In this document: positions 7,640 to 47,485 of the stretch, piece after piece
How the letters are laid out: every line of letters begins with the position of its first letter
How positions within the stretch are numbered: the stretch's first letter is position 1
Source of the DNA: Promethearchaeota archaeon
Lineage (GTDB): Archaea > Asgardarchaeota > Lokiarchaeia > Sigyniarchaeales > SOKP01
Length of the DNA stretch: 60,631 bases
Reading direction: 5' to 3'
Assembly: GCA_016840165.1 (NCBI GenBank)
Contig: JAEOSU010000097.1
Span: 1-60,631 of the forward strand
Notes under the pieces: model-generated
The model's input: only the letters and a program-made list of their open reading frames with translations
Database searches by the model: none
What the model was told of the DNA's origin: nothing
Translations under genes and position numbers: made by a program

Positions 7640-8193
7640 AAATTGATAAATTAATTGTTAAATCATAAATTTAAGAGTTATTTTTTGATTTCGTCTTTTT
7701 AGAAAAAATACACAAATACACACTCAATTTTTTTGTCATGCAACCAGTGTGTATTCACAACAAGATAGGCTTAGAAACCTTCAAAACATTAAAGACACTA
7801 TTTCTGATCAAAATTTTAGATCGAAACATTTATAAATGAATACACAATTATGATACATAACTACACAACAAAAAAAATGATAAAAAATGAGATATAAAAA
7901 ATTAGATAGGAAGGAAGAAATAATTATGAAAAGTGCGATTGAAGGATACCACTCCTGCTTTCGCTAAAAATATTTTATTTTTATTTTTTTTAAAAATGAT
8001 TTATGGAGGAAAAGAGTATGAAAAAAAATTCAATAACGAATGGATTTGATGAAATAGATAGGATAAAAACTATAGTACATTCAAAATTACTAATTAATTA
8101 TACGCATAATTCTAATCAATAATCTAATTGTAATTAAATAAAAAGTCAAAAATGTGATTAATAAAAATAATACAAAAAAAGAGATGAGATATT

Positions 8194-8991
8194 ATGGTAG
8201 AAGAAGAGAATAATGAGAAGTATTGTCCATTTTGTGGAGAGTCGTTAGAAGAAAATGCAAAATTTTGTGCTTCATGTGGTCAGGTTCTGCCTGAAGATGC
8301 GAATAATCCCGGGAATCATGAGGAAAGGAAAGATAATCCTGGTAACAATGAGTATGACGATGAGGAAGATGATGAAAAGACAACAAGGTTAAAAATTTCA
8401 TCAGATGGGATAAAACTTAGATCATCGAGCGATAATGATGACAGTACTGTACGATTAAATATTTCTGTTCCAGATTCTAAAAGAAAGGAATGGAAAAGGT
8501 TAGCTGCTACACTTGATGAATCGGTTTCAGAACTAGTAAGGGAAGCTATGGGAGCGCTTCAAGCCGGTTTGACTGGAGCTGAAAATTTAGATGATTTTGG
8601 ACTGAAGATGGAAGAATGGGGAAAAAAGTTCGAAAAAAACATAAAAAAGTCGGGGATAGTGGATATCGGGAAGAAAGTTAAGAAAGATGTGCAGAGAAGT
8701 TTAGACAAAAGTTTAGGTAAGATCGATAAAAAGTATAGAGAATCAAAAAAGTCCGAAGAGGAACTTGAGCGGATAAAAAAGAGAATTAAAGGACTAATCA
8801 AGCTTCAAGGATCAGTCCCAATAGATAAGCTCTCACAAGCATTAGAAATTTCTAAGGAAGATGCTGAAAATATGATATATGAGTTAGCTGCAGAGGGTGT
8901 CGAAGGTAAACTAGAAGAGGGAGTATTTAAATATACTTCGAACGAGGATGAGGTTATTTCCAAATTGTTCAGATTAATAGATCAATTGTAA
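8194..8991 (+). CDS. zinc-ribbon + ribbon-helix-helix + C-terminal PCI/winged-helix-like protein, probable regulator
   Basis: CPFCG..CASCG; TVRLNISVPDSKRKEWKRLA...SVSELVREAM; VPIDKLSQALEISKEDAENMIYEL. Confidence 0.7.
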   Translation: MVEEENNEKYCPFCGESLEENAKFCASCGQVLPEDANNPGNHEERKDNPGNNEYDDEEDDEKTTRLKISSDGIKLRSSSDNDDSTVRLNISVPDSKRKEWKRLAATLDESVSELVREAMGALQAGLTGAENLDDFGLKMEEWGKKFEKNIKKSGIVDIGKKVKKDVQRSLDKSLGKIDKKYRESKKSEEELERIKKRIKGLIKLQGSVPIDKLSQALEISKEDAENMIYELAAEGVEGKLEEGVFKYTSNEDEVISKLFRLIDQL

Positions 8992-9025: not shown

Positions 9026-10303
9026 ATGGAAAATATACCAACACAATCAACTTTCCGCCATTACATGTTTTTTTGGAGCGGACAGATGTTTTCTTTGTTA
9101 GGATCGATGGTAGTCCATTTTGTTATTATCTGGTATCTTACAGAAACCACTGAAAGCGCCGTTGTGTTAGGATTTGCAAATTTCTTTTTCTATTTACCAA
9201 TGGTAATTGCTTCTCCGATTGCAGGTGTATTTTCCGATAGACTAGATAGAAAAAAATTAATTATTATAGTTGATTCCTTTCAAGCGATTGCCACAGTATT
9301 TTTAATTATTCTGTTTACTTTTGGAATTACAGATATTTTGGTTATTTTTCTATTCATTGCTCTAAGGAGTATTTTCCAAGCATTTCATTATCCAACAGTA
9401 ACTGCAGTAGTACCTACTATGGTTCCGAAAGAAAAGTTGAGCAGAATAAATGGCGTTAATTTTTTAGCCTCAGGAATTGTCCAACTAATTGGTCCTGCTT
9501 TAGCGGGGACTCTTTTAGTATTTGTAAGTATAGAACAAGCACTTTGGACAGATGTTATCACTTTTTTTATCGCATTTGTTCCATTACTACTAATTGTCAT
9601 ACCAAAAGTAAATAGTGAAAAACAAATTAAAAAGGCATCTTTTACGGAAGAGTTTAAAGATGGATTAAAAACATTAAAAGTTATTCCAGGAGTAATTTCA
9701 TTACTAATTATGGCAATGCTAATTAATTTTTTAATTCAACCTCTAAGCGTATTAACCTCACTTTTTATCTATTCTAATCATGCAGGAAATGAACTTGAGT
9801 ATGCTTTTGTTTCTGTGGGTATTCAAGCGGGGATTATATGCGGAGCATTGCTTACAACTGTTAAAAAGGAATGGAAAAATAAGATAGCAGTTATGTTTTA
9901 TTGTCTAATTATGTTAATGATTGGATATGCGCTGACAGGAATTGCTCCATATCGGGCTTTCATCTACATTTTTATTGTTAATTTGGCCATGGGTTTTGTG
10001 TTGCCAATTATTAATACTATATATCAAACAATTATGCAGAAAATAATTCCACAAGAAAAATTTGGGAGAGTAAGTTCGATTGATTCAATGTTTTCAATGT
10101 TAATGTCTCCAATAGGAGCATTAATCGTAGGGCCATTAGCACAATTAATGGGAATTACTACTATCTTTCTATTAAGTGCATTTTTAGGAATTTCAATTAC
10201 AATCTTGATGTACACTTTTTCAGTGCTTCGTAAATTGGATTTTGATGCAGTTTTAGATACGAATTTGACCCGTAATGATAATAAATCAACTATTATTGAA
10301 TAA
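9026..10303 (+). CDS. MFS transporter, DHA3/MefA-like efflux family
   Basis: GQMFSLLGS, AGVFSDRLDRKK motif A, about 12 TM helices. Confidence 0.92.
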   Translation: MENIPTQSTFRHYMFFWSGQMFSLLGSMVVHFVIIWYLTETTESAVVLGFANFFFYLPMVIASPIAGVFSDRLDRKKLIIIVDSFQAIATVFLIILFTFGITDILVIFLFIALRSIFQAFHYPTVTAVVPTMVPKEKLSRINGVNFLASGIVQLIGPALAGTLLVFVSIEQALWTDVITFFIAFVPLLLIVIPKVNSEKQIKKASFTEEFKDGLKTLKVIPGVISLLIMAMLINFLIQPLSVLTSLFIYSNHAGNELEYAFVSVGIQAGIICGALLTTVKKEWKNKIAVMFYCLIMLMIGYALTGIAPYRAFIYIFIVNLAMGFVLPIINTIYQTIMQKIIPQEKFGRVSSIDSMFSMLMSPIGALIVGPLAQLMGITTIFLLSAFLGISITILMYTFSVLRKLDFDAVLDTNLTRNDNKSTIIE

Positions 10304-10322
10304 TTTTAACCATATACAAGAA

Positions 10323-10985
10323 CTAAAACGTAAATGAGACTTCAAAAGGTAAATCCTGTAACAAATCCTTAACTTGGTCCTTAAATTCATCAGAAACAGA
10401 TTCAAAACCACATTTATTAAAAATATTCACCGAAAGATAATTAGGTTTTATTTCTAATAAAAATAACTTCAATTTTAATATGTCCTCTATTTTATCATTA
10501 ATTCCTTTTAAAAGCATTGTATAAACGCTGAAGTAACCATTAAAATCTTTTATAAACAATCGAACTCCATTTAAAATCTCCTTAACATCCCATTCCTCAT
10601 CAGATACACAAGAGTGACAAAAGTCTGAAGAAACTACCGAATTTAAATTAATAACAACTGTATCACACGATAAAAATGCTCTGCGTACCTTCTCATAGAC
10701 AAATAATGAAGCGTTAATATATGCACCAATCTTCTGATTTGGAAAGATTTCTTTTATCATACTCAATAATCTTTGAACCCCTATAAACATACTTATATCC
10801 TTAATCCCTCTTAGCCATATATAATTAGGACTCTGATTTTTTCTAAAATAATCCCTAATCTCAGAAAAAATGCTATCAGCAGGGTAAAACTCGATATATC
10901 CATTATTCTTATCAATATCAATTGGTAATACACTACCAAATACAGGGCTACGTTGTATTTCTTTCAAATGGATATATCCCAACAA
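10323..10985 (-). CDS. degenerate radical-SAM-like protein lacking the CxxxCxxC motif
   Basis: EFYPADSI, NASL, INLNSV and TMLLKGIND match the GPVPSRRLG-type radical SAM family; the cluster motif is absent. Confidence 0.65.
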   Translation of the reverse strand: MLGYIHLKEIQRSPVFGSVLPIDIDKNNGYIEFYPADSIFSEIRDYFRKNQSPNYIWLRGIKDISMFIGVQRLLSMIKEIFPNQKIGAYINASLFVYEKVRRAFLSCDTVVINLNSVVSSDFCHSCVSDEEWDVKEILNGVRLFIKDFNGYFSVYTMLLKGINDKIEDILKLKLFLLEIKPNYLSVNIFNKCGFESVSDEFKDQVKDLLQDLPFEVSFTF

Positions 10986-11045
10986 ATCACCAATATTAAT
11001 TTAAAATTCTTTGCTATATAACTGGATTAGTAATCTTTTATTAAA

Positions 11046-13994
11046 TCAATCAGATTTTTTCTTATATATCTCTCTGTAAAATTTTCCTTTTCGTTTCTCA
11101 GTTGTTTCCATCTTCTCAATACATGTCTTTGCTTTATTAGGTAATCCTAGCTTTTCATAACAAAGAGCCATTTTTTCATAAGTTTCACAAATATACCATC
11201 CTGTAGGATCCAATCTCTCTGCTTCTTCAAATTTTTCAATTGCCTCCTCATAATTTCCCATGTCCATTAAAATTTCACCATAACTATCATATGAATTACC
11301 ATCATTAGGATCGATTTTTAATAAATATTTAATGGATTCAATTGCTTCTTCATTTCTGTTTAATTTCGCCAGAATTAAGGCTTTATTATTATGTAAAGTT
11401 TTATTAGTAGGATCTTCCTCAATTACCTCCTCAATGACTTTTAAACCTGCATTGAAGTCTTGGATTTTAAAGTAAATAAATGATTTAATTTTATTCATTG
11501 ATATTTTTTTCTTAGGAAATTTATCAATTATCGATTCTATTAGTTTTAATGCTTCATTTTCTCTGCCATTTGATACTAGTAAGAAAATTTTAGATCTATG
11601 GAAATCGAAATCGTTTTCATATAAATTTATGGCTTCATCAATTACATTGTAAGATTCCTCATCATTTCCAATTTCTTTTAATAAATAAGACTTAAATTGT
11701 AGATAAATAGCTTGATTAAATTGGATTGGTTCAAAATGCATTGCTTTATCAATCAATCCATTAAAGTTATCAATATTTGCCTCAGATAAATTCCAATTAT
11801 AAATTAAACAATATCCAATCACATACGCTTTAGCAATATATGAAATTGGGTGATCTGGATAACTAACAATACAATGATTTGCTATTTTTAAAGCATCATT
11901 AAATGATCCTTTGGTCAAATAAAGGTATACAGAAACTAATGAGGCCGATGTATCTAATATAGGATTTTGTTCGTAAGGATTTATTACAAAATTCAGTTCA
12001 TCTCTAATAACCTTCTCTGCATCTTTAATCTTTTTACTTAACGATAACAGCATTGCTTTTAATATTATTATATCTTTATTCAGTGGCTTCAATTTAAGAA
12101 TAGAATTCATTAATTCAATTAATCTGTCAGGAGGGTACTCACATGGACATTCTTCACATAGCATTGCCAGGAATTTAGTTCGTAATAATAAGATATTGTT
12201 GGGGAAATTTTTTATCGCATTATTAATCAATAGTAATGCATCTTTTTCTTCATCCATTTTAATCAAAGTTTGAGCCTTCTGTATGATTAGTGAAGAATTT
12301 GACGTTTTCTTAAGTCCCTCATTGAGAAGCTCTAAAGATTTTTCTAATTCATCCATCATAAATAATGTAATGGATTTTAATAAATAGCCGATATAGCTCT
12401 CTGGATACTTTTCCACTAATTTTGTAGTTAATTCAAGTGATTTATCATATTTGTTTAACGAAGTGCTGATTAAATCTTCAATGATTAAACCCTCTTTTTC
12501 GTCAAAAAGACTTTTATTTTTATGATAAAAGATTTTTAATTGATTAATGTCGCCCTTTTGAAGTTGAACTAGAATTTCATGGAATATTTCTTGATTTGAA
12601 GTTTTAAACTCTTCATTAAGTTGATTATCTTCTAAATAATCCAATTTATTTAAATAATAGATATCTAATGCTTCAAATATTTGGTGTTCCAATTGATAAG
12701 TTACTTCACTCTTATCTTCCTCTATATTGATATTTCTTGTAGATAATGATTCAAATTCTGCAGATATGGTTTGCCAAATTAGACTTTCCAGTTTATTATC
12801 ATCACGTACTAATTTCTTCTCTGTTTCAATCTTGTACGCTAAATTTTTAATATATTCGGGTAAAAATTTTCTTAATATATCTTTTAAATCCTCATGAAAT
12901 AAATTTGAACAAATCTCACCTATAATCTCCTCAATTATACCTGAAATTGTTAATTCTGGACTTTTATTAGGGGTTTTTTGATAGAGATTGTTCAAATAGG
13001 TGTAACGGGTCATTTTTTCATCAACTATTGCTCTTAATACCCTTTCAATCTTCTCATTTCCTTGAAAATAAAAAACCTTATTTGGGTTAACCTCCAACTT
13101 GTAAAATTTAACAGCATAAAATTCTTCTTCAACAATTTTTTCAATAAAGAAATCTAAGGTTGTCTTCTTTAAGTTGTATTCATGAGCGAATCGTTCTGGA
13201 GATGTATGCTCTGGATATTGATCAGGATGATTAATTGATAAGAATAATAAAATTTTGTTAAACGTTTCTTCCTCTTCTAATAAATTCTCTACCTTTGAAT
13301 AGTTTAGCTTTAAAACATTATTTAGAAATCTAAACTTTATCCCATCATCTTCGATTTCATATTTATCGAAAAATTCATTTGAAAATTTCGTAAATTCTTG
13401 AATTCTTTTACTTTCCTCTTCCAAGATCGATTGACGATCTAATTCATACTCCTTTAATACATTAAAATATTCCGATTTTCCTAAGGCAGTTATACTATAT
13501 TCTTTATTCTCATTTTTAATAAAATCTTCATCCATTAGTTTCCTAATATTTTTTGATAAAGAAGATTGATTGATGTTTAGAGGATTACTTGTAAAATCAG
13601 ACCATCTACATGACTCATTATTGTATAGCATCCACAAGATCCAGTGATCATAATTTCTTGATCTGGTGATTATTTTTGGAGGATAATTAAGAACACTTCC
13701 ACCTGTTTCTTTTATATAGAGTAGCTCATTTAAACGAGTCTTTCCGTCGGAGGTGATTTCATACTTATTTCTTTCAGGTTTATCAATAAAACCTTGTCTT
13801 TTTAACGTTCTTAAATAATTAGATAAAGTTGATTCCGGAATTAATTGATCATCCATATAATCCGTAAAATCAGACCATCCACATGACTCATTATTACGCA
13901 GCATCCATAAAATAATAAGTTCATAATTTTTTTCAATAATCGAAGGTTGCAATATATTTTGAGGTGGATAAATTAATTCTCTTGACTTACTCAA
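11046..13994 (-). CDS. large regulator-like protein: tandem N-terminal winged-helix domains plus C-terminal TPRs
   Basis: Duplicated YPP..NY..ILWML.NNESC.WSDF...S.LS..L..L wHTH units; TPRs such as SYDSYGEILMDMGNYEEAIEKFEEA. Confidence 0.85.
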   Translation of the reverse strand: MSKSRELIYPPQNILQPSIIEKNYELIILWMLRNNESCGWSDFTDYMDDQLIPESTLSNYLRTLKRQGFIDKPERNKYEITSDGKTRLNELLYIKETGGSVLNYPPKIITRSRNYDHWILWMLYNNESCRWSDFTSNPLNINQSSLSKNIRKLMDEDFIKNENKEYSITALGKSEYFNVLKEYELDRQSILEEESKRIQEFTKFSNEFFDKYEIEDDGIKFRFLNNVLKLNYSKVENLLEEEETFNKILLFLSINHPDQYPEHTSPERFAHEYNLKKTTLDFFIEKIVEEEFYAVKFYKLEVNPNKVFYFQGNEKIERVLRAIVDEKMTRYTYLNNLYQKTPNKSPELTISGIIEEIIGEICSNLFHEDLKDILRKFLPEYIKNLAYKIETEKKLVRDDNKLESLIWQTISAEFESLSTRNINIEEDKSEVTYQLEHQIFEALDIYYLNKLDYLEDNQLNEEFKTSNQEIFHEILVQLQKGDINQLKIFYHKNKSLFDEKEGLIIEDLISTSLNKYDKSLELTTKLVEKYPESYIGYLLKSITLFMMDELEKSLELLNEGLKKTSNSSLIIQKAQTLIKMDEEKDALLLINNAIKNFPNNILLLRTKFLAMLCEECPCEYPPDRLIELMNSILKLKPLNKDIIILKAMLLSLSKKIKDAEKVIRDELNFVINPYEQNPILDTSASLVSVYLYLTKGSFNDALKIANHCIVSYPDHPISYIAKAYVIGYCLIYNWNLSEANIDNFNGLIDKAMHFEPIQFNQAIYLQFKSYLLKEIGNDEESYNVIDEAINLYENDFDFHRSKIFLLVSNGRENEALKLIESIIDKFPKKKISMNKIKSFIYFKIQDFNAGLKVIEEVIEEDPTNKTLHNNKALILAKLNRNEEAIESIKYLLKIDPNDGNSYDSYGEILMDMGNYEEAIEKFEEAERLDPTGWYICETYEKMALCYEKLGLPNKAKTCIEKMETTEKRKGKFYREIYKKKSD

Positions 13995-17454: not shown

Positions 17455-19389
17455 TTAGATATGCAATTTTGATTGCCAAAATTTAATTTTTCTTACGGTA
17501 TCTGAAATTTCTGGCTGTGTAAGAGGACGGGGTTTAGTCTTAAGACTTGCAATAGTGATGCTCATTTGATTTAATACACTAGAATATCCTTTTTCATCAA
17601 TAATTTTATTTCTTAAAAGTTCTAGATCTGATGAAATTTGACTTCCCGTTTTTACATTTACTTCTTCAGTTATTTGCCGAAAAGATTCAGTTATTGAAAT
17701 ATCATCAGAAATTGTAGATTTTCTCTCTGAAGGGAGTGCTGATCTCTTTTCAGATGGTGTTGTGATTTGTTTTGGTTCGGGACGAGGTTTTTGAAGGAGT
17801 GGTTCAATTTCATTTACCATACTTGGTTTTAATGAAGATTTGAAGGTCGTTTGAGGCGTTTGGGAAATTTTTAAATCCGGTTTTGGGATTGCGGGAGCAG
17901 TTCTTCCAACTGAATAGACAATATCTTGATCACTAACCTTCTTACTTTGAATCCAAACGTCTTCAAGCACTGCTGCAAATAACTTCACATGCTCTTCGAG
18001 AATTGAGCCCATTCCTGCAATCTCAAATTCTTCCTCCATTTTTGAAACCACACATACTACAACTTCTTCAAAATCGCGATTAATGGCCCATAAATTCTCT
18101 CGAGAATATAACCGGATATCTATATTAGGATATTTTACAATCTGTTGTAATTTTACTTGATCTTCAGGGTTATCCCAATTGAAATTTGTAGAAATTCTGA
18201 TATTAATATGTTTTTTAAGGTTTGAGAGTGCTACGAGATCAACATCCTCGAGGCGAGGAGCGATTATATGAACTCTCATCTTTATTCTTGAGATTGACTC
18301 GTTTACTTGGGCTTTCATTCCTTCGATACTCCTCACAAACCAAACATCTTTAAATGTGAGCATTGAAGCCTTCTTCGAGCGTTCCCAGAACTCGCTCATT
18401 GTTTCTTCAGAAAGATTTAACTGGATTAAAATGTTTGTTATAATATCTTCCTCAAGGATTTTGTATATTTCTCGTTGGAATAAGTCTTTTAATTCTTCGA
18501 TTCCCTTATCCACATCCTCATATACAGTAGAGATACGAGTGTCTAAATCTTCCAACGTATCTTTTAGCCCAGATTCAATATCGGTAAAAGTACCACTTAA
18601 GTCTGTACTCATCTCTCCTGCTGCATCTGAGATTGTTGCTAATTGATTGGTTACTTGATCTAATGTGTTCTGAATGGTCGTAACAAATTTTTCTCGAAAG
18701 TAATCCGTTAAATCCAGAAATTGTTCAGAGATTATTTTCGAGACGATCTTTTCAGCCATATTTTTTAAGGCACCAATTCTAAACTGCTTCTCAAATTTAT
18801 CGGAGATCTCTGCTTTAATTTTTTCTAACCGTGTTTCTACAATACTGAATTCTTTAATGATTTCTTCAGGAACGATTTCTCTTAAATTTAGAATGAAAGC
18901 TCGAATCTCCTGGAATCTTTTAACACTTTCGAGCTCCTTTTCGACCCGACTGAATTGAGATTTAAGTTGTGCAGGTAAATTTTGTTTCATCATCTGGATA
19001 TAATTTCGATATTCGTTTAACTTTCCCAGTTTGGCAGAATGTTCTTCGATCTCTTTAAATTTCAAATCTAGTACCTTTGGAGTCGATTCCTGAATATTTT
19101 TTACGATTCCTTTGAATTGAGCTATTTGATTTAACAAGGCGGAGTAAGGGGGAAGAGCTACATAAAATGGAGTCTTACCAGGAACCTCTCGAATCAAACC
19201 TTTTTCTAGCAAGTTCTTTGCTATTTGTGAGGCTTTTAATTCATCCACATTAATCAATAACGCAATTTCTCCAATCATTACTGGACCTCTGCCCGTGAGA
19301 TGGAAATAAGTATCAATTTCCTCTTGGGAAAGTCCAATCAGCTCTAAGACTTGCTTGGTTGACTTAAACTCTTCCTCATTTTGAGACAT
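17455..19389 (-). CDS. TrmB-like protein with a long helical insertion and an extra C-terminal helical domain
   Basis: N-terminal wHTH (LIGLSQEE..TYFHL...LLEKGLI...YVALPP), ~250-aa amphipathic helical region, TrmB/PLD-like effector region, Pro-rich linker. Confidence 0.7.
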   Translation of the reverse strand: MSQNEEEFKSTKQVLELIGLSQEEIDTYFHLTGRGPVMIGEIALLINVDELKASQIAKNLLEKGLIREVPGKTPFYVALPPYSALLNQIAQFKGIVKNIQESTPKVLDLKFKEIEEHSAKLGKLNEYRNYIQMMKQNLPAQLKSQFSRVEKELESVKRFQEIRAFILNLREIVPEEIIKEFSIVETRLEKIKAEISDKFEKQFRIGALKNMAEKIVSKIISEQFLDLTDYFREKFVTTIQNTLDQVTNQLATISDAAGEMSTDLSGTFTDIESGLKDTLEDLDTRISTVYEDVDKGIEELKDLFQREIYKILEEDIITNILIQLNLSEETMSEFWERSKKASMLTFKDVWFVRSIEGMKAQVNESISRIKMRVHIIAPRLEDVDLVALSNLKKHINIRISTNFNWDNPEDQVKLQQIVKYPNIDIRLYSRENLWAINRDFEEVVVCVVSKMEEEFEIAGMGSILEEHVKLFAAVLEDVWIQSKKVSDQDIVYSVGRTAPAIPKPDLKISQTPQTTFKSSLKPSMVNEIEPLLQKPRPEPKQITTPSEKRSALPSERKSTISDDISITESFRQITEEVNVKTGSQISSDLELLRNKIIDEKGYSSVLNQMSITIASLKTKPRPLTQPEISDTVRKIKFWQSKLHI

Positions 19390-19412
19390 TTTAATATCAT
19401 CTACAAAAATAA

Positions 19413-20540
19413 TTATTTTTTATAAAATTGCTCTAACAATTCTAAATATTTAATCGCAGTTTTTCGCTTTAATTTCTTCTCAGCCGTTTTTTGCCTAATC
19501 TTTTCTATCATGTACTCTGGATAAAAAGTTTGAGCAGTCGGGTCGGTGAGAAGAAATATCCATTCAATTCCTTTTTGATCTTTAATAATCGTAAGAATAT
19601 TATCTTTCTCAAGTACGCTTAACATTTCTTTAATTTCATCAAATGTCTCTCCGGGGCTCTTAGGAATCTTATTAATGGGATATGCTTTTTCTCTGAAGAG
19701 CGTAATGAAATCATATTTATCGGGATTAATCATATTATATGCTATTTTAAGGTTATCCTCATATGTAGGAGTATACTTTGAAAAATAGGCATTTACCTGC
19801 TCAAGATACCTAGTAGCCAAATATGGAGTTGGTAAATTGCTATTTGCATCACCAATAAGTTTTACCGCAGGAACTCTCATAATGGTGAAATCGGAAATAA
19901 GAAATAAGCTTATATCAGAATCACCCTCAATCCAATCTTGTTTAATTAAATCAGTTTTTACAAACGGATCTAAGGTTATTTCAAGATTATATATAGATTT
20001 TGCTAATTTTTCTTCTAAAATATTTCGCAAATCATTTCGCGAGTAGGCACTTTCTCTCAGTACTTCAAGAATGGCCCTTCCTTTTTCACTGGTAAAGATC
20101 TGAGCCATCCTTTGCTCTTTACTCAAATTCTTTAGTCGTTCTAAAAGAAAGAGAGAATTTTTAATATAATCCTTTAACTCTTCAGTAATATCATAACTTC
20201 TTGACGGTTCATTAGTAATTGCATTTAGATAAGTTAGAATGTTAGAGTTAATTTCTGATATCACCATCTCTCCGAAAATTTCGGGATCTTCATCTAAATC
20301 AAGCATTAAATTGATCATAAATGGAATAGTGGCGTCCATCCCTGTGAAATAACTAGCAACATTGGAGTGTGCTTTCTCTAATCGAACTAAAACATTTCCA
20401 GCTTCAGCAGCTCCAGTAATATGTGCATAAAAAATTCTCATCATATCATCCAAATCTACTTCTAAAGTTTCAGGATAACTGAGTTGAAGTGCTAACCCTT
20501 GATCTTCCGTCCATTTGGTAATAACATATCCTTTAGTCAT
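19413..20540 (-). CDS. hypothetical protein with an N-terminal longin-like domain and winged-helix segments
   Basis: MTKGYVITKWTEDQGLALQLSYP resembles the N-termini of 35779-36999 and 38676-39992. Confidence 0.55.
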   Translation of the reverse strand: MTKGYVITKWTEDQGLALQLSYPETLEVDLDDMMRIFYAHITGAAEAGNVLVRLEKAHSNVASYFTGMDATIPFMINLMLDLDEDPEIFGEMVISEINSNILTYLNAITNEPSRSYDITEELKDYIKNSLFLLERLKNLSKEQRMAQIFTSEKGRAILEVLRESAYSRNDLRNILEEKLAKSIYNLEITLDPFVKTDLIKQDWIEGDSDISLFLISDFTIMRVPAVKLIGDANSNLPTPYLATRYLEQVNAYFSKYTPTYEDNLKIAYNMINPDKYDFITLFREKAYPINKIPKSPGETFDEIKEMLSVLEKDNILTIIKDQKGIEWIFLLTDPTAQTFYPEYMIEKIRQKTAEKKLKRKTAIKYLELLEQFYKK

Positions 20541-35136: not shown

Positions 35137-35592
35137 TTAATCGGGGGTCAACTCGTCTAAGTCGCTCAAGTCCAGCCCCGAATCTAAGGTGTCTGGAATG
35201 TCTGACAAAAATTCATCTAAAATCTCTTTCAATTCATCGCCCGATCTCTTTAAAATCAATCTAATTAATCCAATATTGATATCCGGATCGGAGATAAGGG
35301 TTAATACACCTTTAGGACCGCAGCTTGACGCAAAGATTTTCCCTCCTGAAAATTCACTAGTTACAATTTCTAAATCTCCAAGTTCTAAATTCTTTCCTTG
35401 TTCCTCGCTCGCACAGAATACAGCACTTGCGATTGCGCCAATACCATCAACATCGGCCGGAAAGTAGGAAAATTTTGAGACACTTGCGATAGTTAACCCG
35501 GTCCTATCGACCAAAATTACTTTTTTAATCCCGCTTTCCGATTTGATTATTTTCGATAAGATATTATCAAAACTTTTGGTATCAATAGACAT
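35137..35592 (-). CDS. Roadblock/LC7 (MglB/LAMTOR-like) protein
   Basis: VILVDRTGLTIAS, IGAIASAV..ASE..G..L.LG.L, INIGLIRL; acidic tail. Confidence 0.93.
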   Translation of the reverse strand: MSIDTKSFDNILSKIIKSESGIKKVILVDRTGLTIASVSKFSYFPADVDGIGAIASAVFCASEEQGKNLELGDLEIVTSEFSGGKIFASSCGPKGVLTLISDPDINIGLIRLILKRSGDELKEILDEFLSDIPDTLDSGLDLSDLDELTPD

Positions 35593-37247: not shown

Positions 37248-38120
37248 CTACTTTTCGTTTAAATTAGAAAATAGAAACATTCCATCAAGGATCCTATTTA
37301 TTTTAATTTGATTTTGATTTATATCATCGATGATTATATCTGATTTAAAGATCCTTGTTTTTTCAGTTAAAGAGAATTGATTTTTGTCTGATAATATCTC
37401 TACGAGGCCTAATTTCTTAAGCTGATTAAGATGGATTAAAGCATCTTTATGTTGGAGATTGAAATCATAAAATAGTACATTGATATTATATGTTTTATAA
37501 ACGTCATAGTTTATTAAGATCTCTAGATCTTTTCTTAATTCATTAATTTGGTCTACTCTATTCCCCAAATTTTTAATAGAGATAATTTTTCCTAAAATCT
37601 CAGCTACATAATCATAAGTAGTCAGAAAAAAATCGGCAGCAATAGAAGTTGGAAAAACAGGGATATTTTCATTTATTGCTAAATTAGTTTTAAGAAAGTC
37701 CTTAAATGCATTTATTTTATGATGTAATAAGATTTTATCAATTAAATCAACTTTATGAAAGAAGACTACTATTGAGGCTTTTTTTAAATTCATTTCTTTA
37801 TGTATATTTAGAAGTTTAAAAAAGAAATCTTGAATTTCTTTAATATACATATTAATATCAAATACACATAGTAATAAATTAGCATTCAAAAATATTTCTC
37901 GTTCATGAGAAAACCAGTTTTCATTTTCTTGGCCTGCTAAATCAAATACTCCTAATTCATAATTAAATAGAGTAAAAATTTTTGAATCAACGCCTCTTGT
38001 AGGTTCTATACTTGTATTCATTAATTTAAATGGACTCACCATTTCAAAAAAGACTTTTTTAATTGTACTTTTACCTACACCTGGAGGACCAATAATTATT
38101 ATTTTTTTCTTCTCGAACAT
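37248..38120 (-). CDS. Rag/Gtr-like small GTPase with a C-terminal winged helix
   Basis: G1 GPPGVGKS, G2 EPTRG, G3 DLAGQE, G4 HKVD, G5 TSI. Confidence 0.88.
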   Translation of the reverse strand: MFEKKKIIIIGPPGVGKSTIKKVFFEMVSPFKLMNTSIEPTRGVDSKIFTLFNYELGVFDLAGQENENWFSHEREIFLNANLLLCVFDINMYIKEIQDFFFKLLNIHKEMNLKKASIVVFFHKVDLIDKILLHHKINAFKDFLKTNLAINENIPVFPTSIAADFFLTTYDYVAEILGKIISIKNLGNRVDQINELRKDLEILINYDVYKTYNINVLFYDFNLQHKDALIHLNQLKKLGLVEILSDKNQFSLTEKTRIFKSDIIIDDINQNQIKINRILDGMFLFSNLNEK

Positions 38121-38139: not shown

Positions 38140-38511
38140 TTAAGCAGAATTAATTAACTTATCAATTAAGGTTCTAAACTCTTTAACCCTTATGGGTTTT
38201 GAGATATATTCATTAAACCCGGCTTTAAGTATACGCTCTTTATCACCTTTCATTGCAAAGGACGTCACAGCAATTATTGGTATATTATTGAACTTATCAA
38301 TCGCTCTTAATTCTGTACAAATTTCAATTCCATTTATTACAGGTAATTGAATATCGAGAATGATTAAGTCTGGATCACCCGTTTTAATTAATTCTAACCC
38401 TAAATCTCCTTGAGTTTCTTCAAATAATTTGATATCTGGCATAATTTGGAATATAGCACGAAAAAGCTTCATATTCTTTTCATTATCTTCTACTAAATAT
38501 ACTTTTTTCAT
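38140..38511 (-). CDS. single-domain response regulator (DivK/CheY-like)
   Basis: VEDN, LIILDIQLP (phospho-Asp), VTSFAM, SKPI. Confidence 0.95.
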   Translation of the reverse strand: MKKVYLVEDNEKNMKLFRAIFQIMPDIKLFEETQGDLGLELIKTGDPDLIILDIQLPVINGIEICTELRAIDKFNNIPIIAVTSFAMKGDKERILKAGFNEYISKPIRVKEFRTLIDKLINSA

Positions 38512-38675
38512 TTTTGTAAGTCAATTCCTAAGTTTATGAATATTATATTATACTAGCTTAGTTAAAATTCCCCTTAATATTCCTATCTTTTTAGATATCT
38601 TTATATATATCATCTCTTATGCATTATTTAAGTTTAAGGATCTAACCAGAAGTATAATACCGAAAGGAGACAAAA

Positions 38676-39992
38676 ATGGTTATAGGTCTATTACTATTAA
38701 AATGGCATAATAAACTTGGTCCATTAATTGATTTAAAATATCCCATCGATGTTAAAATTTCAGATAGTCTGATAAATAAAGTCTATACAGCTTATTCTTT
38801 TCATGATGAGAAAAAAGCACAAGATTTTATGGAAATTTCTACCAACAATTTGATAGTTTTATCCTATTGTGATATCTCTCAGATACCAGAAAAGGGATAT
38901 GAAATTGCCCTAATAATATTGGAAGAGAAGAATAGAATAAGTCTAAATAAAATAAAACAACATTTTATGAAATTTTCTAAAGAGATTTTTCAACTCACTG
39001 AAGATAGTCGTGAAAATTATTTTAATAATAACTTAGATTATTTTTTCAAAAAATCTACTGCCAAAAAAGTCTTATTATTAGGTTGTGCTGGAACGGGTAA
39101 AACTAGTATCAAGAGGATAATATTTGAAGGAGCGGATCCAAAAGTCTTACTTCTAAATCCCCTTGAACCTACAAGAGGTATAAGTCCAAATGTTTACTCA
39201 TGGCTTGATTTAAAATTAGGTGTTTTTGATTCTTCAGGACAAGAATTAAGCTACCTATTAGCTAATGAAGAAGACAGTGATTTTATTTTAGCTTTTAAAA
39301 ACACAGACATCATTGTTTATGTAATAGATTATACACTATGGAACATAAAACATAATGAAATAGAAAATCATATCCAAAAGATCTCACAAATAATTCAAGC
39401 AAGTAATCTACAAACAAAACTGGTTTTATTTGTTCATAAAATAGATTTAATCGAAATGCATGATCATGACAAAGTAATAAATGAGTTAAAACATTATTTT
39501 CAAGGAAATTTTAATTTAGACGTTTACTTCACAAGTATTCATCCAGAATGGATTTATAGTTTATATAATGCATTTTATGACCTTTTAAGTAGTTTTTCTC
39601 AAGAAACTTTAAATTTGAGATCTATTTTAAAAGATCAAATTAAAGAAATCTCAAAAGCAACGGTTTTTATCACAAATTTGCAGGATTCTATTATTGTACA
39701 GAGTATGACTAACGATTTTAATACAAATATAATTAATCGCTCACATAAATTAATTGCTGAAATTAATGAAAATTTTGAGGATATGAGTCAGGAGGGAAGA
39801 ATTGACCATCTGATTCTTTCAAGTGAGGGAAATTTTAACATTATTATGAACAATTTAAATATGTCAAAATTTGGTCTTAAGTATATAATAATTCTTTCTG
39901 AGAGTTTATCAGCAAATAAATTGATATTACTGGTTGGCCAAATAAGATTACAACTTAAAGACTTCTACTATTTAGAGAAAAAGGTATCATAA
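38676..39992 (+). CDS. longin-like + Rag-like GTPase + Roadblock-like fusion protein
   Basis: N-terminus LLKWHNKLGPLIDLKYP; GCAGTGKT, EPTRG, DSSGQE, HKID, TSI; C-terminal alpha/beta domain. Confidence 0.82.
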   Translation: MVIGLLLLKWHNKLGPLIDLKYPIDVKISDSLINKVYTAYSFHDEKKAQDFMEISTNNLIVLSYCDISQIPEKGYEIALIILEEKNRISLNKIKQHFMKFSKEIFQLTEDSRENYFNNNLDYFFKKSTAKKVLLLGCAGTGKTSIKRIIFEGADPKVLLLNPLEPTRGISPNVYSWLDLKLGVFDSSGQELSYLLANEEDSDFILAFKNTDIIVYVIDYTLWNIKHNEIENHIQKISQIIQASNLQTKLVLFVHKIDLIEMHDHDKVINELKHYFQGNFNLDVYFTSIHPEWIYSLYNAFYDLLSSFSQETLNLRSILKDQIKEISKATVFITNLQDSIIVQSMTNDFNTNIINRSHKLIAEINENFEDMSQEGRIDHLILSSEGNFNIIMNNLNMSKFGLKYIIILSESLSANKLILLVGQIRLQLKDFYYLEKKVS

Positions 39993-39994
39993 TT

Positions 39995-41536
39995 TTGAGT
40001 AAAAAAATAATTTTTATAGGACCTTCGGGAGCAGGAAAAACCACTATTAGAAAGATCTTCTTCGAAGGAGAAAACTCTAAAAAACTTCTTGAATATGCTT
40101 TAGAACCCACGTATGGTGAAGAATCATTAATTTTGAGATTACCAGGTCTTAATGAAGATATTGGAATTTTTGATTTATCAGGCCAAGAAAATCATAGATG
40201 GTTAGATACTAATGAAAATGAAATTTTTATTGATTCAAAAATAATTATTGTGGTAATAGATATAAATACTGAATTTGACCTAATATCTGATTTTATCGAT
40301 AAAGTAGCTAAAGTTCGTGATGAATTATCTTCAAAATCTATGATTTACGTGCTTTTACACAAAATTGATTTAATTGATGCGAATGAATTAAAGAAATTAA
40401 AGATCAAATCAAAAAATTCATTTTCTGACAAAAAATTATTAAAAATAATGTTTACCAGTCTCAAAAAAAAATATCTTGTTAATACTTTTTCTGATTTCTT
40501 GGTAATAATGAAATCATGCTTACTTGAGGAAGATTCTGATAGTGCTTTAGAATTTAACGTCATTGATGAATCACTTAAAATTATATCAATAATTAAAAAA
40601 GAAATAACTATATCGAAAAAAAATTTAATAGAGAAGCTAAACCGACCAGAGAAATTAATATTATATTTATTAGAGAGTTTAATGAAAAAAAATCATATCA
40701 TTATTCAAAAGATTGAAAATAATGAAATTATAACGTTGACTGATTTTGGACGAGATTATTTCTCAAGAATTATTAACTCTTTTTCACCTATCATAGATGC
40801 AAATAGCGATCTAACCTACAACTCCCATGATGAGTCATTATTACTAGATAATATACCTTATTTTTTAGGGTTTATAATCTCTGATAAAGATGGGAGAACC
40901 TTACTTAACGCCGAATCTTCTGAAAGTATATTACATAAAATTTTATTTAGTATAAAAAAAGCTGATCCTACAACAATTTCCACAGATCTGGATCTAATTC
41001 CTATGTTTATAAGTGCATTAGAAAAATTTTCGATTGAATTAAATATTCATGATCTATCGGGATTTGATTTGTCAGGGAGTAATTTAACTTTATGTGTATT
41101 AAGTTATGATATATACAACGTTATCATATTTATGAATCCTGATGTAAATTTCAAACCTTTTGAAACTAGAATTCGGAATTACTTTAGCAATATCTTCGAG
41201 GAATATACACAATTGTTTAATAAGGCTCTCAAAACAGGACAAACTGATATATTATCACCTATAATAGAAGACGCTAAAAATTGGCTTGATAATTTAAATA
41301 AATCCTATAAAAGTATGGTAATAAATTTAGAAATCATTGATATAGATCATGCAAAATTGTTATATGAAAAAATCGATAACTTATATGATAACATTAACCA
41401 AAAGTTTAATATTACTCTGGATAAAATTAAAAAGCTCAAAGTAAATTTAATGAAAGCTATATTAGAAAAGGATTATGATGAGCTTAAAATTATCTCAAAT
41501 CATGCAAAGAACTTAAGCTTAGAATATAGTATATAG
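39995..41536 (+). CDS. Rag-like GTPase + winged helix + longin/Roadblock-like domain + helical tail
   Basis: GPSGAGKT, EPTYG, DLSGQE, HKID, TSL; wHTH ending ITLTDFG; FIISDKDGRTLL...LIPMFISALEKFSIEL. Confidence 0.82.
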   Translation: MSKKIIFIGPSGAGKTTIRKIFFEGENSKKLLEYALEPTYGEESLILRLPGLNEDIGIFDLSGQENHRWLDTNENEIFIDSKIIIVVIDINTEFDLISDFIDKVAKVRDELSSKSMIYVLLHKIDLIDANELKKLKIKSKNSFSDKKLLKIMFTSLKKKYLVNTFSDFLVIMKSCLLEEDSDSALEFNVIDESLKIISIIKKEITISKKNLIEKLNRPEKLILYLLESLMKKNHIIIQKIENNEIITLTDFGRDYFSRIINSFSPIIDANSDLTYNSHDESLLLDNIPYFLGFIISDKDGRTLLNAESSESILHKILFSIKKADPTTISTDLDLIPMFISALEKFSIELNIHDLSGFDLSGSNLTLCVLSYDIYNVIIFMNPDVNFKPFETRIRNYFSNIFEEYTQLFNKALKTGQTDILSPIIEDAKNWLDNLNKSYKSMVINLEIIDIDHAKLLYEKIDNLYDNINQKFNITLDKIKKLKVNLMKAILEKDYDELKIISNHAKNLSLEYSI

Positions 41537-41553
41537 GATACTCTATTAATTGA

Positions 41554-43620
41554 TTATTTAATTTTTTTCATTATTGAAAAGTAAAAAGTAGTCCCAACTC
41601 CCAATACACTAGAAAATTTGATTTCGCCTCCATGTAACTCAATCAATCGTTTAGTTAAAGATAAACCTAAACCCGTTCCGGGAACTGAGCGTACATATGT
41701 TGAATCTACTCTTTTGAAATCCTTAAATAATATTGGAAAGTCTTTTGTATCGATCCCTATACCCGTATCAAAGACTTCAAATTCCCATTTATCATATTTT
41801 TCAAATACTTTAAATGATATAGTGCCCTCAATAGTAAATTTTACAGCGTTACTAAATAAATTTAGTAAAATTTCTTTGAATTTTAGAGGATCTGCTTCCA
41901 TCTCTATCTCTTTATCCAGTCCTTTTACTTTAAATTCTATCTTTTTCTTACCTACAAAAGGTTTTAGGCTTGATATAGTTTGCTCGACCATAGAATTCAG
42001 AGAAAAACTTTTTACATTTAGCGTTATCTGCCCAGATTCAATTTTAGAAATATTCAGAATATTTTTTATCATATCGAATTGATCTTCTGCTGAGATTTTT
42101 ATATCATTAACAAAATCTCTTTGCTCCTCCGTTAATGGACCATATACTTCTTCTAATAGTAACTCTGTAAATCCGATAATAGCATTTAATGGAGTTCTGA
42201 GCTCATGAGACATAGTTGACATAAATTCCGTCTTAAACTGGGATGTCTTTAGAATTCGGTCTAAATATTTCTTTTGTTGTTGAAAAGCAAAATTCAAATC
42301 GATTGTTCGAGTTTCAACCTCTCGCTCTAATTTTTCTTTGAATTCAAGTTCGAGAAGTTCCCGTTTCTTCTTTTCATTAATATTTTGGAAAAGAAGTTGT
42401 AAAAATATATTTTCTTCGTGGTTAATAACAGAAGCTTGCACTTCTAGCCAAATCTTATTTTTCAATTTGTCTAGGACTTGTATTTCTATGGGTTTAGGGA
42501 AATCCTTCTTGAGAAAAGCTTGGAAAGTATTTTTATAAAAATGTTTTAATTCAAATGGGAATAATGTATTAAATTCCTCAAGTGATTTACCAATTAAGAA
42601 ACTTTTTTCATATCCAAATACATTCTGAGTAGATTTATTTGCATCAACAATAATTCCTTTAAAATCAATAATGAGTATAGCATTTGGAGAATTTTCAAAT
42701 AGATTTTTATATTTTAACTCAACCCACTTACGTTTTTCAATATTGGTGAGAACGCATACCAAATTATTATTTGTATTTGTAAATAACTCAAAGATCCTGC
42801 ATTCAAATTGATGCCAATGACCTTCTTTATTTTTAAGTCTAATCTCTAATGAATTTTCATTATTATGTGACTCCTGATAGATTGCGTTTTCAATTTTATC
42901 AAAATCGTCATGATGAAGGATGCTTAAAAAGGAAAATCCAATTAGATCTTCTGATCTATACCCGAGATATTTCATAAGGGAATTTTCATTAACATTTTTA
43001 ATGATCTTGTTTTTAGTCATAGAAATAAGGATATCATTAGAAAATTGAGCAAATTTATTAAGCTTTATTTCTAAAATCTCCTTTTCTTTAAGTAAATCTA
43101 TATTCTCAAGGATCTTAGATATAATCAAAGATATTAGTTTGATATTTCCTAAACTTTCCTCAAATATTTTCTCAGAAGTATTTAATGATATTAATCCAAT
43201 ATAACCAATTAATCCTTTTTTTGAATAAATTGGAAAGGCAAAAAAAAATCGAATATTTTTCAAGATTAATAGCTCTTCGATTGATCTTGGGTTTGTTCTA
43301 TATTTATTTTCTAAATGTAATTGTACTATAGAATTATTTTTAAGATGATTATAAAACCATGGATATATATTTAAATCCAACTCATCTGGGAATAGAGAAT
43401 CTTTATTAAATTTTTCTAAAGCAACATAATGAACAAATTTAATCGATTTAAGATCTTCATTAATTAAAGAAATAAAGGAATAATCGAATTTACACATTTC
43501 ACATAATAATTTAAGGATTAGGGATAAATTCTTAATATTATCTGATTCATCTATAATATCCAAATATCTTTCGATGAATGAACTATTATTTAAATCCTTG
43601 CTCGAAATTTTTTCTAACAT
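41554..43620 (-). CDS. cytoplasmic GAF-PAS-PAS histidine kinase
   Basis: H-box MSHELRTPLNAIIGF, N-box NLFSNAVKFT, DTGIGI, GTGLGL; no TM helix. Confidence 0.95.
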   Translation of the reverse strand: MLEKISSKDLNNSSFIERYLDIIDESDNIKNLSLILKLLCEMCKFDYSFISLINEDLKSIKFVHYVALEKFNKDSLFPDELDLNIYPWFYNHLKNNSIVQLHLENKYRTNPRSIEELLILKNIRFFFAFPIYSKKGLIGYIGLISLNTSEKIFEESLGNIKLISLIISKILENIDLLKEKEILEIKLNKFAQFSNDILISMTKNKIIKNVNENSLMKYLGYRSEDLIGFSFLSILHHDDFDKIENAIYQESHNNENSLEIRLKNKEGHWHQFECRIFELFTNTNNNLVCVLTNIEKRKWVELKYKNLFENSPNAILIIDFKGIIVDANKSTQNVFGYEKSFLIGKSLEEFNTLFPFELKHFYKNTFQAFLKKDFPKPIEIQVLDKLKNKIWLEVQASVINHEENIFLQLLFQNINEKKKRELLELEFKEKLEREVETRTIDLNFAFQQQKKYLDRILKTSQFKTEFMSTMSHELRTPLNAIIGFTELLLEEVYGPLTEEQRDFVNDIKISAEDQFDMIKNILNISKIESGQITLNVKSFSLNSMVEQTISSLKPFVGKKKIEFKVKGLDKEIEMEADPLKFKEILLNLFSNAVKFTIEGTISFKVFEKYDKWEFEVFDTGIGIDTKDFPILFKDFKRVDSTYVRSVPGTGLGLSLTKRLIELHGGEIKFSSVLGVGTTFYFSIMKKIK

Positions 43621-46618: not shown

Positions 46619-47485
46619 TTAGGTATTGAATTCATTCAAAATTAGGAAAAAAAAGAACGTATCAAAACCTAAATTTTCCTCTAAATCTCCTTTTTTTCGT
46701 ATATTTTCTAGACCAAATTTAAAAAAATAGGCACTATCCGATAAAACAAAAGCATCCATATTATTCATGCTTTTGATCAATCCCTTTCTCTCCATATCTA
46801 TAATGCGGGATAATAGCCTTTCTTCCTTAATATTGAGTTTAACTGCTAATTTCTCAACATAAATCTGTTTATCTTCAATAGCACATAATATTGAATTGAA
46901 TTCAGCCATTTCATTTCCCTGGGATGGAATCCCTTCATAGGGAATAATACTCTTTAAAAGTTTATACAACACTCTGAAAGTATAGTAATAATTTTCCTTC
47001 GTAATTGATGTTTGAAATATTTTAAAATTGGCTCCTCGAGGGTGTTGTTTGGTCATAAATTCGCAGATTGCTTTAATCTTACGTTTAGCATACGATTGAC
47101 TTACTAAATCTATTTTATGCATAAATGCTACAATTTTACACGATTTTAAATTGAGATCTATTTGGATTTGATAGATATTTAAAAGAAACTGAATAATTGA
47201 TTCCAATGAATTATTTATATCAAAGATACAAAGGATCATGTTTGAATCATTAAAAATTGACTTATCCTCATTAGATAACCATAAATCATTTTCTTGCCCT
47301 GCTAAATCGAAAATTCCTAATTTAGAGTCCAATAAAACATAATTTGTTGAATTAAGCCCTCTTGAGGGATCCAATGGATTTTTTAGAAGAGAAATTGGGC
47401 TATATTTCTCAAAAAATGTTTTCTTTATTGAGGTTTTTCCGGTCCCTGGAGGTCCTATTAAAACTATCTTTTTACTAGACATCAT
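46619..47485 (-). CDS. Rag/Gtr-like small GTPase with a C-terminal winged helix (paralogue of 37248-38120)
   Basis: GPPGTGKT, DPSRG, DLAGQE, HKID, TSI; VEKLAVKLNI...MERKGLI wHTH. Confidence 0.88.
   Translation of the reverse strand: MMSSKKIVLIGPPGTGKTSIKKTFFEKYSPISLLKNPLDPSRGLNSTNYVLLDSKLGIFDLAGQENDLWLSNEDKSIFNDSNMILCIFDINNSLESIIQFLLNIYQIQIDLNLKSCKIVAFMHKIDLVSQSYAKRKIKAICEFMTKQHPRGANFKIFQTSITKENYYYTFRVLYKLLKSIIPYEGIPSQGNEMAEFNSILCAIEDKQIYVEKLAVKLNIKEERLLSRIIDMERKGLIKSMNNMDAFVLSDSAYFFKFGLENIRKKGDLEENLGFDTFFFFLILNEFNT

Follow-up and report, generated by a model that had tools for sequence, protein, structure and literature searches.

Nutrient sensing in eukaryotes centers on Rag GTPases and on Roadblock and longin platforms. 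Eukaryotic Rags form heterodimers via their two C-terminal Roadblock domains. Many Rag-like GTPases with fused Roadblock or longin domains are known from Asgard archaea. Here, two adjacent genes for proteins of this type were analyzed in a 60,631-nt stretch of DNA (the window) from a Lokiarchaeial (Asgard; Promethearchaeota) archaeon, with a GC content of approximately 27% around the gene pair. Gene 1 (38676-39992, + strand, ATG start) encodes a protein of 438 amino acids (aa) and gene 2 (39995-41536, + strand, TTG start) a protein of 513 aa. Our preferred interpretation, held with moderate confidence, is that they constitute a conserved two-gene operon for paralogous Rag/Gtr GTPases, each fused to platform domains of its own, that act in one signaling pathway; elsewhere, domains of this kind dimerize and regulate small GTPases.

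Published relatives of the pair come from the cultured strain MK-D1 (Prometheoarchaeum), whose 74 small GTPases were surveyed with AlphaFold2 (AF2) (Tran et al., 2024; PMC10933270). That survey described fusions of Rag-like GTPases to longin or Roadblock domains, including proteins with the G domain between longin and Roadblock, and the supplementary alignment of that study (Supplementary Fig. 6) used the class labels LGR, LG, and GXLX. A Roadblock-joined heterodimer was predicted for two proteins of one MK-D1 operon, and homodimers for longin-bearing MK-D1 GTPases (Tran et al., 2024). Since the adjacent accessions WP_147663117/118-GR are labelled GR, the heterodimer pair appears to be of the G-Roadblock type and not LGR-GXLX. 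LGR and GXLX proteins of MK-D1 have the same domain orders as gene 1 (longin-G-Roadblock) and gene 2 (G-X-longin-X), and the G motifs IFFEGE..LEPT.G, FD.AGQE, HK.D, and FTSI are alike in the pair and in WP_147663498.1-GXLX, WP_147663503.1-LGR, and WP_147664208.1-LG. Tran et al. (2024) left the "X" domains of MK-D1 GXLX proteins unnamed; we interpret their equivalents in gene 2 as a winged helix and a helical tail. Unlike gene 1 and gene 2, the LGR-like and GXLX-like genes of the MK-D1-like family f2 do not adjoin each other. The layouts are already known from MK-D1; an LGR-GXLX operon, two-component neighbors, and the identities of the X domains are absent from Tran et al. (2024). The locus in the window adds a conserved paralogous Rag-like pair, named domains for the formerly unlabelled "X", and a fixed genomic context.

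Gene 1 and gene 2 were recognized as real genes rather than chance open reading frames (ORFs) from their 438 and 513 codons at approximately 27% GC and from more than 100 full-length homologs of each. A first-pass annotation of the window had placed them 2 bp apart, and its coordinates and spacing were correct: the TAA stop codon of gene 1 (39990-39992) is followed by a 2-nt spacing (TT) and the start codon of gene 2 (junction TAA-TT-TTG, 39990..39997, + strand). This TTG encodes the first residue of the conserved N-terminus of the orthologs (MSKKIIF). An AGGT located 9-13 nt before it resembles a ribosome-binding site in the window and was conserved in no other loci read; a GGAG-type ribosome-binding site (aaGGAGa) sits 6-12 nt ahead of the ATG of gene 1. 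Upstream, a divergent 164-nt intergenic spacer (38512..38675) separates gene 1 from a receiver gene on the - strand. It contains a TATA-like run, TTTATATATA, at about 38598-38607 that may act as promoter, for which a run of this kind in AT-rich DNA is weak evidence. Downstream, a gene for a 688-aa PAS/HisKA/HATPase histidine kinase (41554..43620, - strand), whose position is conserved, converges with gene 2 across a 17-nt gap. The 2-nt junction, the divergent spacer, and the convergent kinase gene together suggested that gene 1 and gene 2 form a bicistronic unit. One transcript would yield both proteins, probably by coupled translation, for which the proximity of the two genes at the junction makes translational coupling plausible.

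Full-length homologs shared 45-78% identity with the gene 1 protein and 39-73% with the gene 2 protein, and those with a name all belonged to Promethearchaeota/Lokiarchaeia. For approximately 30 pairs of homologs, the longest contigs of both members were equal in size, many measuring just 3-6 kb. In a synteny survey of 61 genomes of the class, at least 17 members of family f1 had a co-directional gene 2 ortholog directly 3' of the gene 1 ortholog. Base-by-base reading of orthologous junctions at 10 loci gave distances of -8 to +38 nt, with three overlaps (ATGAGTAA, ATGAGTGA, and TTGA) and other gaps of 0, 1, 2, 9, and 12 nt. Overlapping or near-touching junctions occurred in at least six genera, and the order of the pair was retained while surrounding genes rearranged. 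In genome G045, the two orthologs converge. In one locus (L005, G054:C10), three gene 2 paralogs (7161-8675, 10129-11643, and 19043-19825) surround a single gene 1, which one of them immediately precedes; the gene for a G-winged-helix-longin protein is duplicated locally here.

Both proteins scored above the cut-off of 22 for the Pfam family Gtr1_RagA (PF04670; gene 1, 75 bits, E 7.8e-21, residues 131-358; gene 2, 49.3 bits, E 5.4e-13, residues 4-142), in agreement with their first description as Rag-like GTPases. The best solved relatives of both proteins by sequence were RagA and Gtr1, and the gene 1 family profile retrieved RagA at E 1.5e-19 as well as Gtr1, Gtr2, RagC, and RagD. A search with NCBIfam on the whole proteins yielded no informative family. 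In family alignments of 45 and 47 members, the P-loop, the switch I Thr, DxxGQ, and a Rag-type HKxD (not NKxD) were invariant; as judged from these sequences, both G domains retain all nucleotide-binding and catalytic motifs.

The G domains of gene 1 and gene 2 are 33% identical. A joint G-domain hidden Markov model retrieved only five ORFs above 150 bits from the organism's own genome, four of them in the window (gene 2, gene 1, and GTPases of 288 and 290 aa). The fifth, on contig 48, encodes a 307-aa G-Roadblock protein, and the ORF ranked after these scored 70 bits. In a tree of archaeal G domains, calculated without eukaryotic Rags, this five-ORF subfamily formed one clade (100/99) that split into an LGR/GR branch, with gene 1 and the contig 48 protein, and a G-winged-helix branch (96/95), with gene 2 and the two proteins of approximately 290 aa. 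Members from family f2 fell on both sides of this split. The tree showed the G domains of the pair to be sister branches of one Lokiarchaeial Rag-like subfamily. Side by side in the genome, these sister lineages echo RagA and RagC, with a split that, on the sequences compared, is separate and archaeal. A preprint (10.1101/2024.02.28.582541) placed both eukaryotic Rag lineages among Asgard relatives. Gene 1 and gene 2 are not expected to be the respective orthologs of RagA and RagC.

The gene 1 protein was modelled with AF2 on its family alignment, giving a predicted local distance difference test score (pLDDT) of 82 and a predicted TM-score of 0.67. The model is consistent with the order longin, GTPase, and Roadblock proposed for this protein in the first-pass annotation. 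Residues 1-122 (38676..39041, + strand) are predicted to adopt a longin fold with the order β-β-α-β-β-β-α-α (elements E2-11, E15-22, H30-41, E51-56, E59-65, E76-83, H88-104, and H109-118; pLDDT of this block mostly 80-89). Its nearest ESM-Atlas cluster (score 0.80) was that of an Asgard protein of approximately 141 aa; NPR2 is found on 19% of the cluster members, which provides a lead only. The G domain (residues 128-306; 39057..39593, + strand), delimited by Pfam, family alignment, and motifs, carries the P-loop GCAGTGKTS, switch I EPT166-R-G, switch II D185-SSGQ189, G4 H254-KID, and G5 TSI. The C-terminal residues 307-436 (39594..39983, + strand) form a predicted Roadblock domain (α-β-β-α-β-β-β-α, 309-432), at the position of the C-terminal domain in Rag/Gtr proteins. 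Although fold and topology agree with Roadblock, residues 305-438 showed no match to Pfam Robl_LC7. In our alignment, codon 11 of gene 1 (38706-38708), in a column with family-wide conservation of at least 90%, encodes His (KWH) in the window and Asp (SWD, TWD, GWD, or KWD) in 15 orthologs at the locus.

Structure comparison placed the gene 1 model closest to complete Rag proteins. Foldseek aligned approximately 312 columns with full-length RagA/Gtr1 (E 1e-16), and VIA gave a Z of 19.7 to RagC (6ulg_G; model residues 130-434), RagA (6s6a_A), Gtr1, and LokiRagO (8yl2_C), whereas single-domain GTPases reached a Z of only about 16. Because these alignments span both domains (model residues approximately 128-432), the G-Roadblock part of gene 1 is predicted to be built like a complete eukaryotic Rag.

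For gene 2, modelled in the same manner (pLDDT 73), a GTPase-winged-helix-longin/Roadblock order had been proposed. The G, winged-helix, and longin domains were recovered in the AF2 model; a Roadblock was not, and three helices (417-513) had gone unmentioned. The G domain (residues 1-177; 39995..40525, + strand), defined by Pfam, motifs, and VIA, contains the P-loop GPSGAGKTT, EPT39-Y-G, D60-LSGQ64, H122-KID, and G5 TS, and gave a Z of 17.0 to RagD (2q3f_B) and of 16.5 to LokiRagO. It is followed by a long helix and a winged helix-turn-helix of the MarR/PadR type (residues 180-262; 40532..40780, + strand), seen in the AF2 model, in VIA matches, and with the family profile. The VIA match to the PadR-like 5h20_A had a Z of 12.1 (root-mean-square deviation, rmsd, 3.3 over 87 residues; model 181-268), and the family profile matched MarR chains at E 7e-4 to 0.05. 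A variable linker, predicted to be disordered (residues 263-287; 40781..40855, + strand; pLDDT below 50 over 263-285), is less conserved than any other part of the protein (column majority 0.31).

After the linker, residues 288-416 (40856..41242, + strand) are assigned to a longin fold from conservation and from the AF2 order β-β-α-β-β-β-α-α (E290-297, E302-307, a broken H312-348, E358-360, E365-371, E374-380, H387-403, and H405-414). Helix α1 and strand β3 of this domain are highly conserved (LIPMFISALEKF ... DLSGF.L.GSN), and two-body VIA alignments of gene 2 to Gtr2 and LokiRagM extend across it. Its neighbors in the Atlas were Asgard proteins of approximately 140 aa that carry the label adaptor-small-chain or Roadblock/LAMTOR2, 22% of the members having Fuz_longin_1; with scores of 0.84-0.85 (below 0.9), these are leads only. 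The protein ends with a helical tail (residues 417-513; 41243..41533, + strand; AF2 helices 417-443, 450-491, and 494-512; pLDDT approximately 70-90), which as an isolated domain had no Pfam family match. This predicted three-helix tail may have a dimerizing or coiled-coil role. In the model, a Rag-type Roadblock does not directly follow the G domain, as the winged helix, the disordered linker, and the longin intervene; moreover, the domain after the linker opens with two strands and no leading helix, which is the longin order, and approximately 100 helical residues come after it. Longin- or Roadblock-type domains in cis, anticipated for both proteins, were present in both AF2 models. Of the C-terminal folds expected, that of gene 1 was a Roadblock, whereas the gene 2 C-terminus was predicted to consist of three helices after the longin.

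Genes for two-component signal transduction flank the pair in nearly all loci. On the 5' side lies the gene for a 123-aa CheY-like, receiver-only response regulator (38140..38511, - strand; Pfam Response_reg E 5e-24) that has all phospho-acceptor residues (the acidic pair E8-D9, D53, T83, and K105), and on the 3' side that for the 688-aa kinase. The receiver adjoined the gene 1 ortholog in every f1 locus whose flank lay in the stretch examined, genus g3 included. Co-expression of the pair and its participation in a shared signaling pathway are likely. The two proteins would represent two switches of this pathway, with the neighboring two-component system as its input. The gene 1 protein would most likely dimerize via its Rag-like Roadblock domain and the gene 2 protein via its longin domain and helical tail. 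Because gene 2 has no Rag-type Roadblock tail, any contact between the two proteins would involve a longin or G domain and differ from the Roadblock-Roadblock contact of RagA/RagC. For physical contact in any mode, the chances are in our estimate slightly below even. A fused LGR-GXLX protein (approximately 950 aa) was not found among the 150 representatives listed in a profile search with the gene 2 non-G module, the longest of which measured 680 aa.

Several observations weigh against this interpretation. In genus g3, gene 1 lies directly between the receiver and kinase genes and a gene 2 ortholog is missing (three loci read: L016 4661-5965, L017 1591-2895, and L018 7054-8340). In four g3 genomes that are 89-100% complete, a search with the gene 2 non-G profile detected only a stand-alone paralog of approximately 250 aa. 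The longin, the G domain, and the Roadblock of gene 1 were about as conserved when g3 was compared with other genera as when those genera were compared with one another, and a relaxation test on gene 1 in g3 showed no clear difference (longin/G identity ratio 0.79 versus 0.85). Genus g3 lost, or never had, gene 2, and since it keeps gene 1 at the same place, gene 1 does not depend on gene 2 and can therefore work without it. The closest counterparts in the sister family f2, at 28-33% identity, are separated by approximately 4 kb and encoded on opposite strands, with genes for a Rab-like GTPase and unrelated proteins between them. Furthermore, gene neighborhood is the single line of evidence that suggests the two-component link, just as predicted topology is the one that points to the longin assignments of both proteins: Pfam searches on the isolated non-G domains, at E-values up to 10, matched no longin or Roadblock model.

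The most probable of the alternatives, although itself unlikely, is that the two proteins do not touch and form separate homodimers (gene 1 through its Roadblock, gene 2 through its longin and helices) that represent co-regulated steps or parallel branches of one pathway. Gene 1 on its own in genus g3 and the unlinked genes of family f2 fit this view, as do the homodimers that Tran et al. (2024) predicted for longin-bearing MK-D1 GTPases. In hhalign comparisons among the non-G domains nothing was significant, the two longins giving P 0.0018 over 45 columns. By sequence, and in keeping with separate homodimers, each platform domain has closer relatives elsewhere in the genome than in the neighboring gene. 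For the gene 2 longin these are a stand-alone 188-aa protein (C27:23028-23594, + strand; E 6e-39) and a 257-aa protein (C30:245358-246131, - strand; E 9e-21); for the gene 1 longin, a 134-aa protein (C4:20907-21311; E 1.5e-12) and others in the genome; and for the gene 1 Roadblock, the G-Roadblock protein of contig 48 (E 1e-17). However, touching or overlapping junctions, found in at least six genera, are commonest for subunits needed in a fixed ratio, and the order of the pair is kept amid rearranged neighbors.

A further possibility is a self-contained hetero-oligomeric Rag module, in which the longins in cis would serve as platforms for a GTPase-activating protein (GAP) or guanine nucleotide exchange factor (GEF) function towards the G domain of the partner and the phosphorylated receiver would set the nucleotide state. 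We regard this version as improbable. If true, two-component sensing would be coupled to a double switch of the Rag type in a prokaryotic circuit, possibly a forerunner of the Rag logic with GATOR/FLCN.

A RagA/RagC-style heterodimer joined through C-terminal Roadblock or longin domains was the first proposal made for the pair; the nucleotide states of its two G domains would be opposite. In its favor, paralogous Rag-like genes are tightly and conservedly paired, the C-terminal domain of gene 1 is a truly Rag-like Roadblock in the model, and Foldseek and VIA can superpose the gene 2 longin, treated as a rigid body of its own, onto the C-terminal domains of Rag, Gtr2, and LokiRagM. The Roadblock heterodimer predicted by Tran et al. 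(2024) also speaks for it, but concerns a different, G-Roadblock pair from another MK-D1 operon. On the other side stand the winged helix and disordered linker after the gene 2 G domain, its longin topology and approximately 100 helical residues, and the absence of gene 2 from g3 while gene 1 is unchanged. Moreover, solved Lokiarchaeial Rags are titled monomeric (8zla and 9m28) or homotetrameric (8yl2), and both Rag lineages of eukaryotes are nested within Asgard relatives (10.1101/2024.02.28.582541). A dimer of this style is in our view quite improbable, and the Roadblock-Roadblock contact that defines Rag heterodimers equally so; since gene 2 has no Roadblock tail and g3 has no gene 2, an obligate gene 1/gene 2 pair is unlikely too. 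The part of the first-pass proposal that assigned a paired function to the proteins was upheld by their conserved tight pairing, and they very probably work together; heterodimerization via C-terminal Roadblocks was not supported, given the domain content of gene 2, the situation in g3, and the unlinked genes of f2. A eukaryote-like RagA/RagC dimer in archaea is not demonstrated by this locus.

Gene 2 might instead deliver the output of the pathway, as a DNA-binding regulator that is switched by GTP and whose MarR/PadR-like winged helix acts as a dimer. The fold itself (PadR-like, Z 12.1; MarR profile matches at E 7e-4) suggests such a role, one homolog fragment (P0199) was annotated at source as a MarR-family regulator, and the longin and helices could supply the dimer that such regulators require. 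Sister proteins in the window (37248-38120 and 46619-47485) have weak helix-turn-helix (HTH) matches in their tails, and a partner with receiver and winged helix has been proposed for Group 3 MglA by Wuichet and Sogaard-Andersen (PMC4316618). Yet among the folded parts of gene 2 the winged helix shows the least conservation, with five of 83 columns reaching 90%, and its invariant (L229 and G252) or nearly invariant residues (L215, L248, and T249) are hydrophobic or glycine. In the gene 2 family alignment, neither the recognition helix nor the wing showed conserved basic or polar residues for DNA contact, and no Arg or Lys was conserved in the wing. Because conserved basic residues are lacking, DNA binding appears less likely than a structural role, and a regulator of this kind is very improbable. 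The winged helices of Roc-COR and other GTPase-linked proteins mediate protein contacts. A Roc-COR-like gene 2, with a G domain, a winged-helix linker, and a dimerization device that controls the GTPase, would explain Foldseek matches to LRRK2, LRRK1, and the Chlorobium Roc-COR tandem (3dpu; E 1e-5 to 1e-6 over 450-530 columns), a VIA Z of 14.2 to the LRRK2 Roc domain, and the similar order of G domain, winged helix, and α/β dimerizer, but is extremely improbable given far stronger matches to Rag/Gtr (Foldseek E 6e-12; Pfam Gtr1_RagA 49.3 versus Roc 30.1 bits), TM-scores to Roco of just 0.19-0.25, VIA matches confined to the G domain, and a G4 of the Rag type, HKxD.

The cluster in which the conserved pair is embedded starts with genes for a 151-aa Roadblock protein, a coiled-coil protein, a G-winged-helix GTPase, and the CheY-like receiver, followed in the opposite direction by gene 1 and gene 2. 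After gene 2 come two PAS histidine kinases, a second G-winged-helix GTPase, a 229-aa protein with a weak Folliculin match, and a 490-aa Arf/Rag-like GTPase. Synteny of the cluster was confirmed in relatives. The free Roadblock/LC7 protein (35137..35592, - strand; Pfam Robl_LC7 E 2.3e-10, MAPKK1_Int E 6.5e-7), put forward in the first-pass annotation as a candidate dimerization partner, is encoded less than 4 kb from the pair in genera g1, g2, and g5 and was absent from the stretches examined for g4, g6, and g8. It is 95-100% identical to its orthologs in four other genomes at 76-83% DNA identity, with 69-86 synonymous codon differences per 151 codons, while neighboring proteins of the same loci are 34-80% identical. 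This pattern points to purifying selection of extreme strength, which would suit a hub protein that has many partners. The two GTPases of approximately 290 aa (37248-38120 and 46619-47485, both - strand) belong to the gene 2 branch and have tails of approximately 110 aa with weak winged-helix matches (HTH_45 E 0.08; NirdL-like HTH E 0.13); they look like gene 2 minus its longin domain and helices. A relationship of the gene 2 non-G module to the neighboring 229-aa or 490-aa protein was considered and rejected, as the comparison revealed none. Four to six proteins of the locus would make a tractable set for biochemistry, and the receiver and PAS histidine kinase context suggests an input signal.

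Relatives of the platform domains occur in other settings. The stand-alone longin paralogs of 188 and 257 aa are candidate alternative dimer partners; the gene for the former lies between those for prolyl-tRNA synthetase and for metallo-beta-lactamase/PLP enzymes, an uninformative context. A 375-aa protein encoded in the window (19413-20540, - strand), for which no Pfam match was found, fits the gene 1 longin profile at its N-terminus (E 1.2e-4, residues 1-64). Contig 48 encodes another tight GTPase pair (C48:17819-18742 and 18773-19822, + strand; L014 4820-5743 and 5774-6823) with a 30-nt gap, consisting of the 307-aa G-Roadblock protein, the closest paralog of the gene 1 G-Roadblock part, followed by a 349-aa protein with an N-terminal region of approximately 120 aa without assignment and an Arf/Ras-like G domain. 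The gene 2 longin-type domain was also seen in rare metagenomic fusions (P0343, P0348, and P0330): to a ThsA-like SIR2 domain (680 aa; PADLOC ThsA E 6e-27), to a CARF/Csm6-like domain (458 aa; E 5e-43), and to a 2TM domain (272 aa), partners typical of defence or signaling effectors. The PADLOC anti-phage models, at E-values up to 0.001, matched neither the gene 1 nor the gene 2 protein.

The pair can finally be compared with systems of known structure or function. Of the solved Lokiarchaeial Rags, which by entry title are a homotetramer (LokiRagO, 8yl2) and a monomer (LokiRagM, 8zla and 9m28), LokiRagO superposes on residues 129-427 of gene 1 with an rmsd of 3.6 over 257 residues, the G-Roadblock fold being common to both. 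In contrast, LokiRagO and LokiRagM share only approximately 17% identity with the pair, were missed by sequence search, and are devoid of the longin, winged-helix, and helical additions. In the longin-pair GAP/GEF platforms FLCN-FNIP, Nprl2-Nprl3, Mon1-Ccz1, and SRX-SRbeta, longins occur with Rag/Arf-like GTPases (PMC3747258), as they do here. Domains of the pair had no Pfam match to those families, an invariant arginine in the longin loops was not present in either family alignment, and the longins described here are fused to G domains.

Small GTPases wired to two-component parts have been described for MglA/MglB with RomR and Frz and for the conservons of Streptomyces (PMC4316618; PMC13343842). 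The MglA/MglB polarity switch of Myxococcus and the conservons (CvnA-D) bring together a GTPase, a Roadblock-fold regulator, a receiver, and a histidine kinase, as does the locus in the window. Their G proteins are single-domain with the Roadblock in trans, whereas the G domains here are of the Rag type with platforms fused in cis; the likeness is one of function, not of membership. With the eukaryotic Rag/Gtr system (RagA/B-RagC/D; Gtr1-Gtr2), the pair shares the Gtr1_RagA G domain, HKxD, and the existence of two paralogous lineages, and gene 1 has the same G-Roadblock build. It differs in the extra N-terminal longin of gene 1 and in gene 2, where a winged helix, a longin, and helices replace the Roadblock tail. 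In their genomic context, gene 1 and gene 2 are accompanied not by Ragulator, TOR, and GATOR but by a two-component system.

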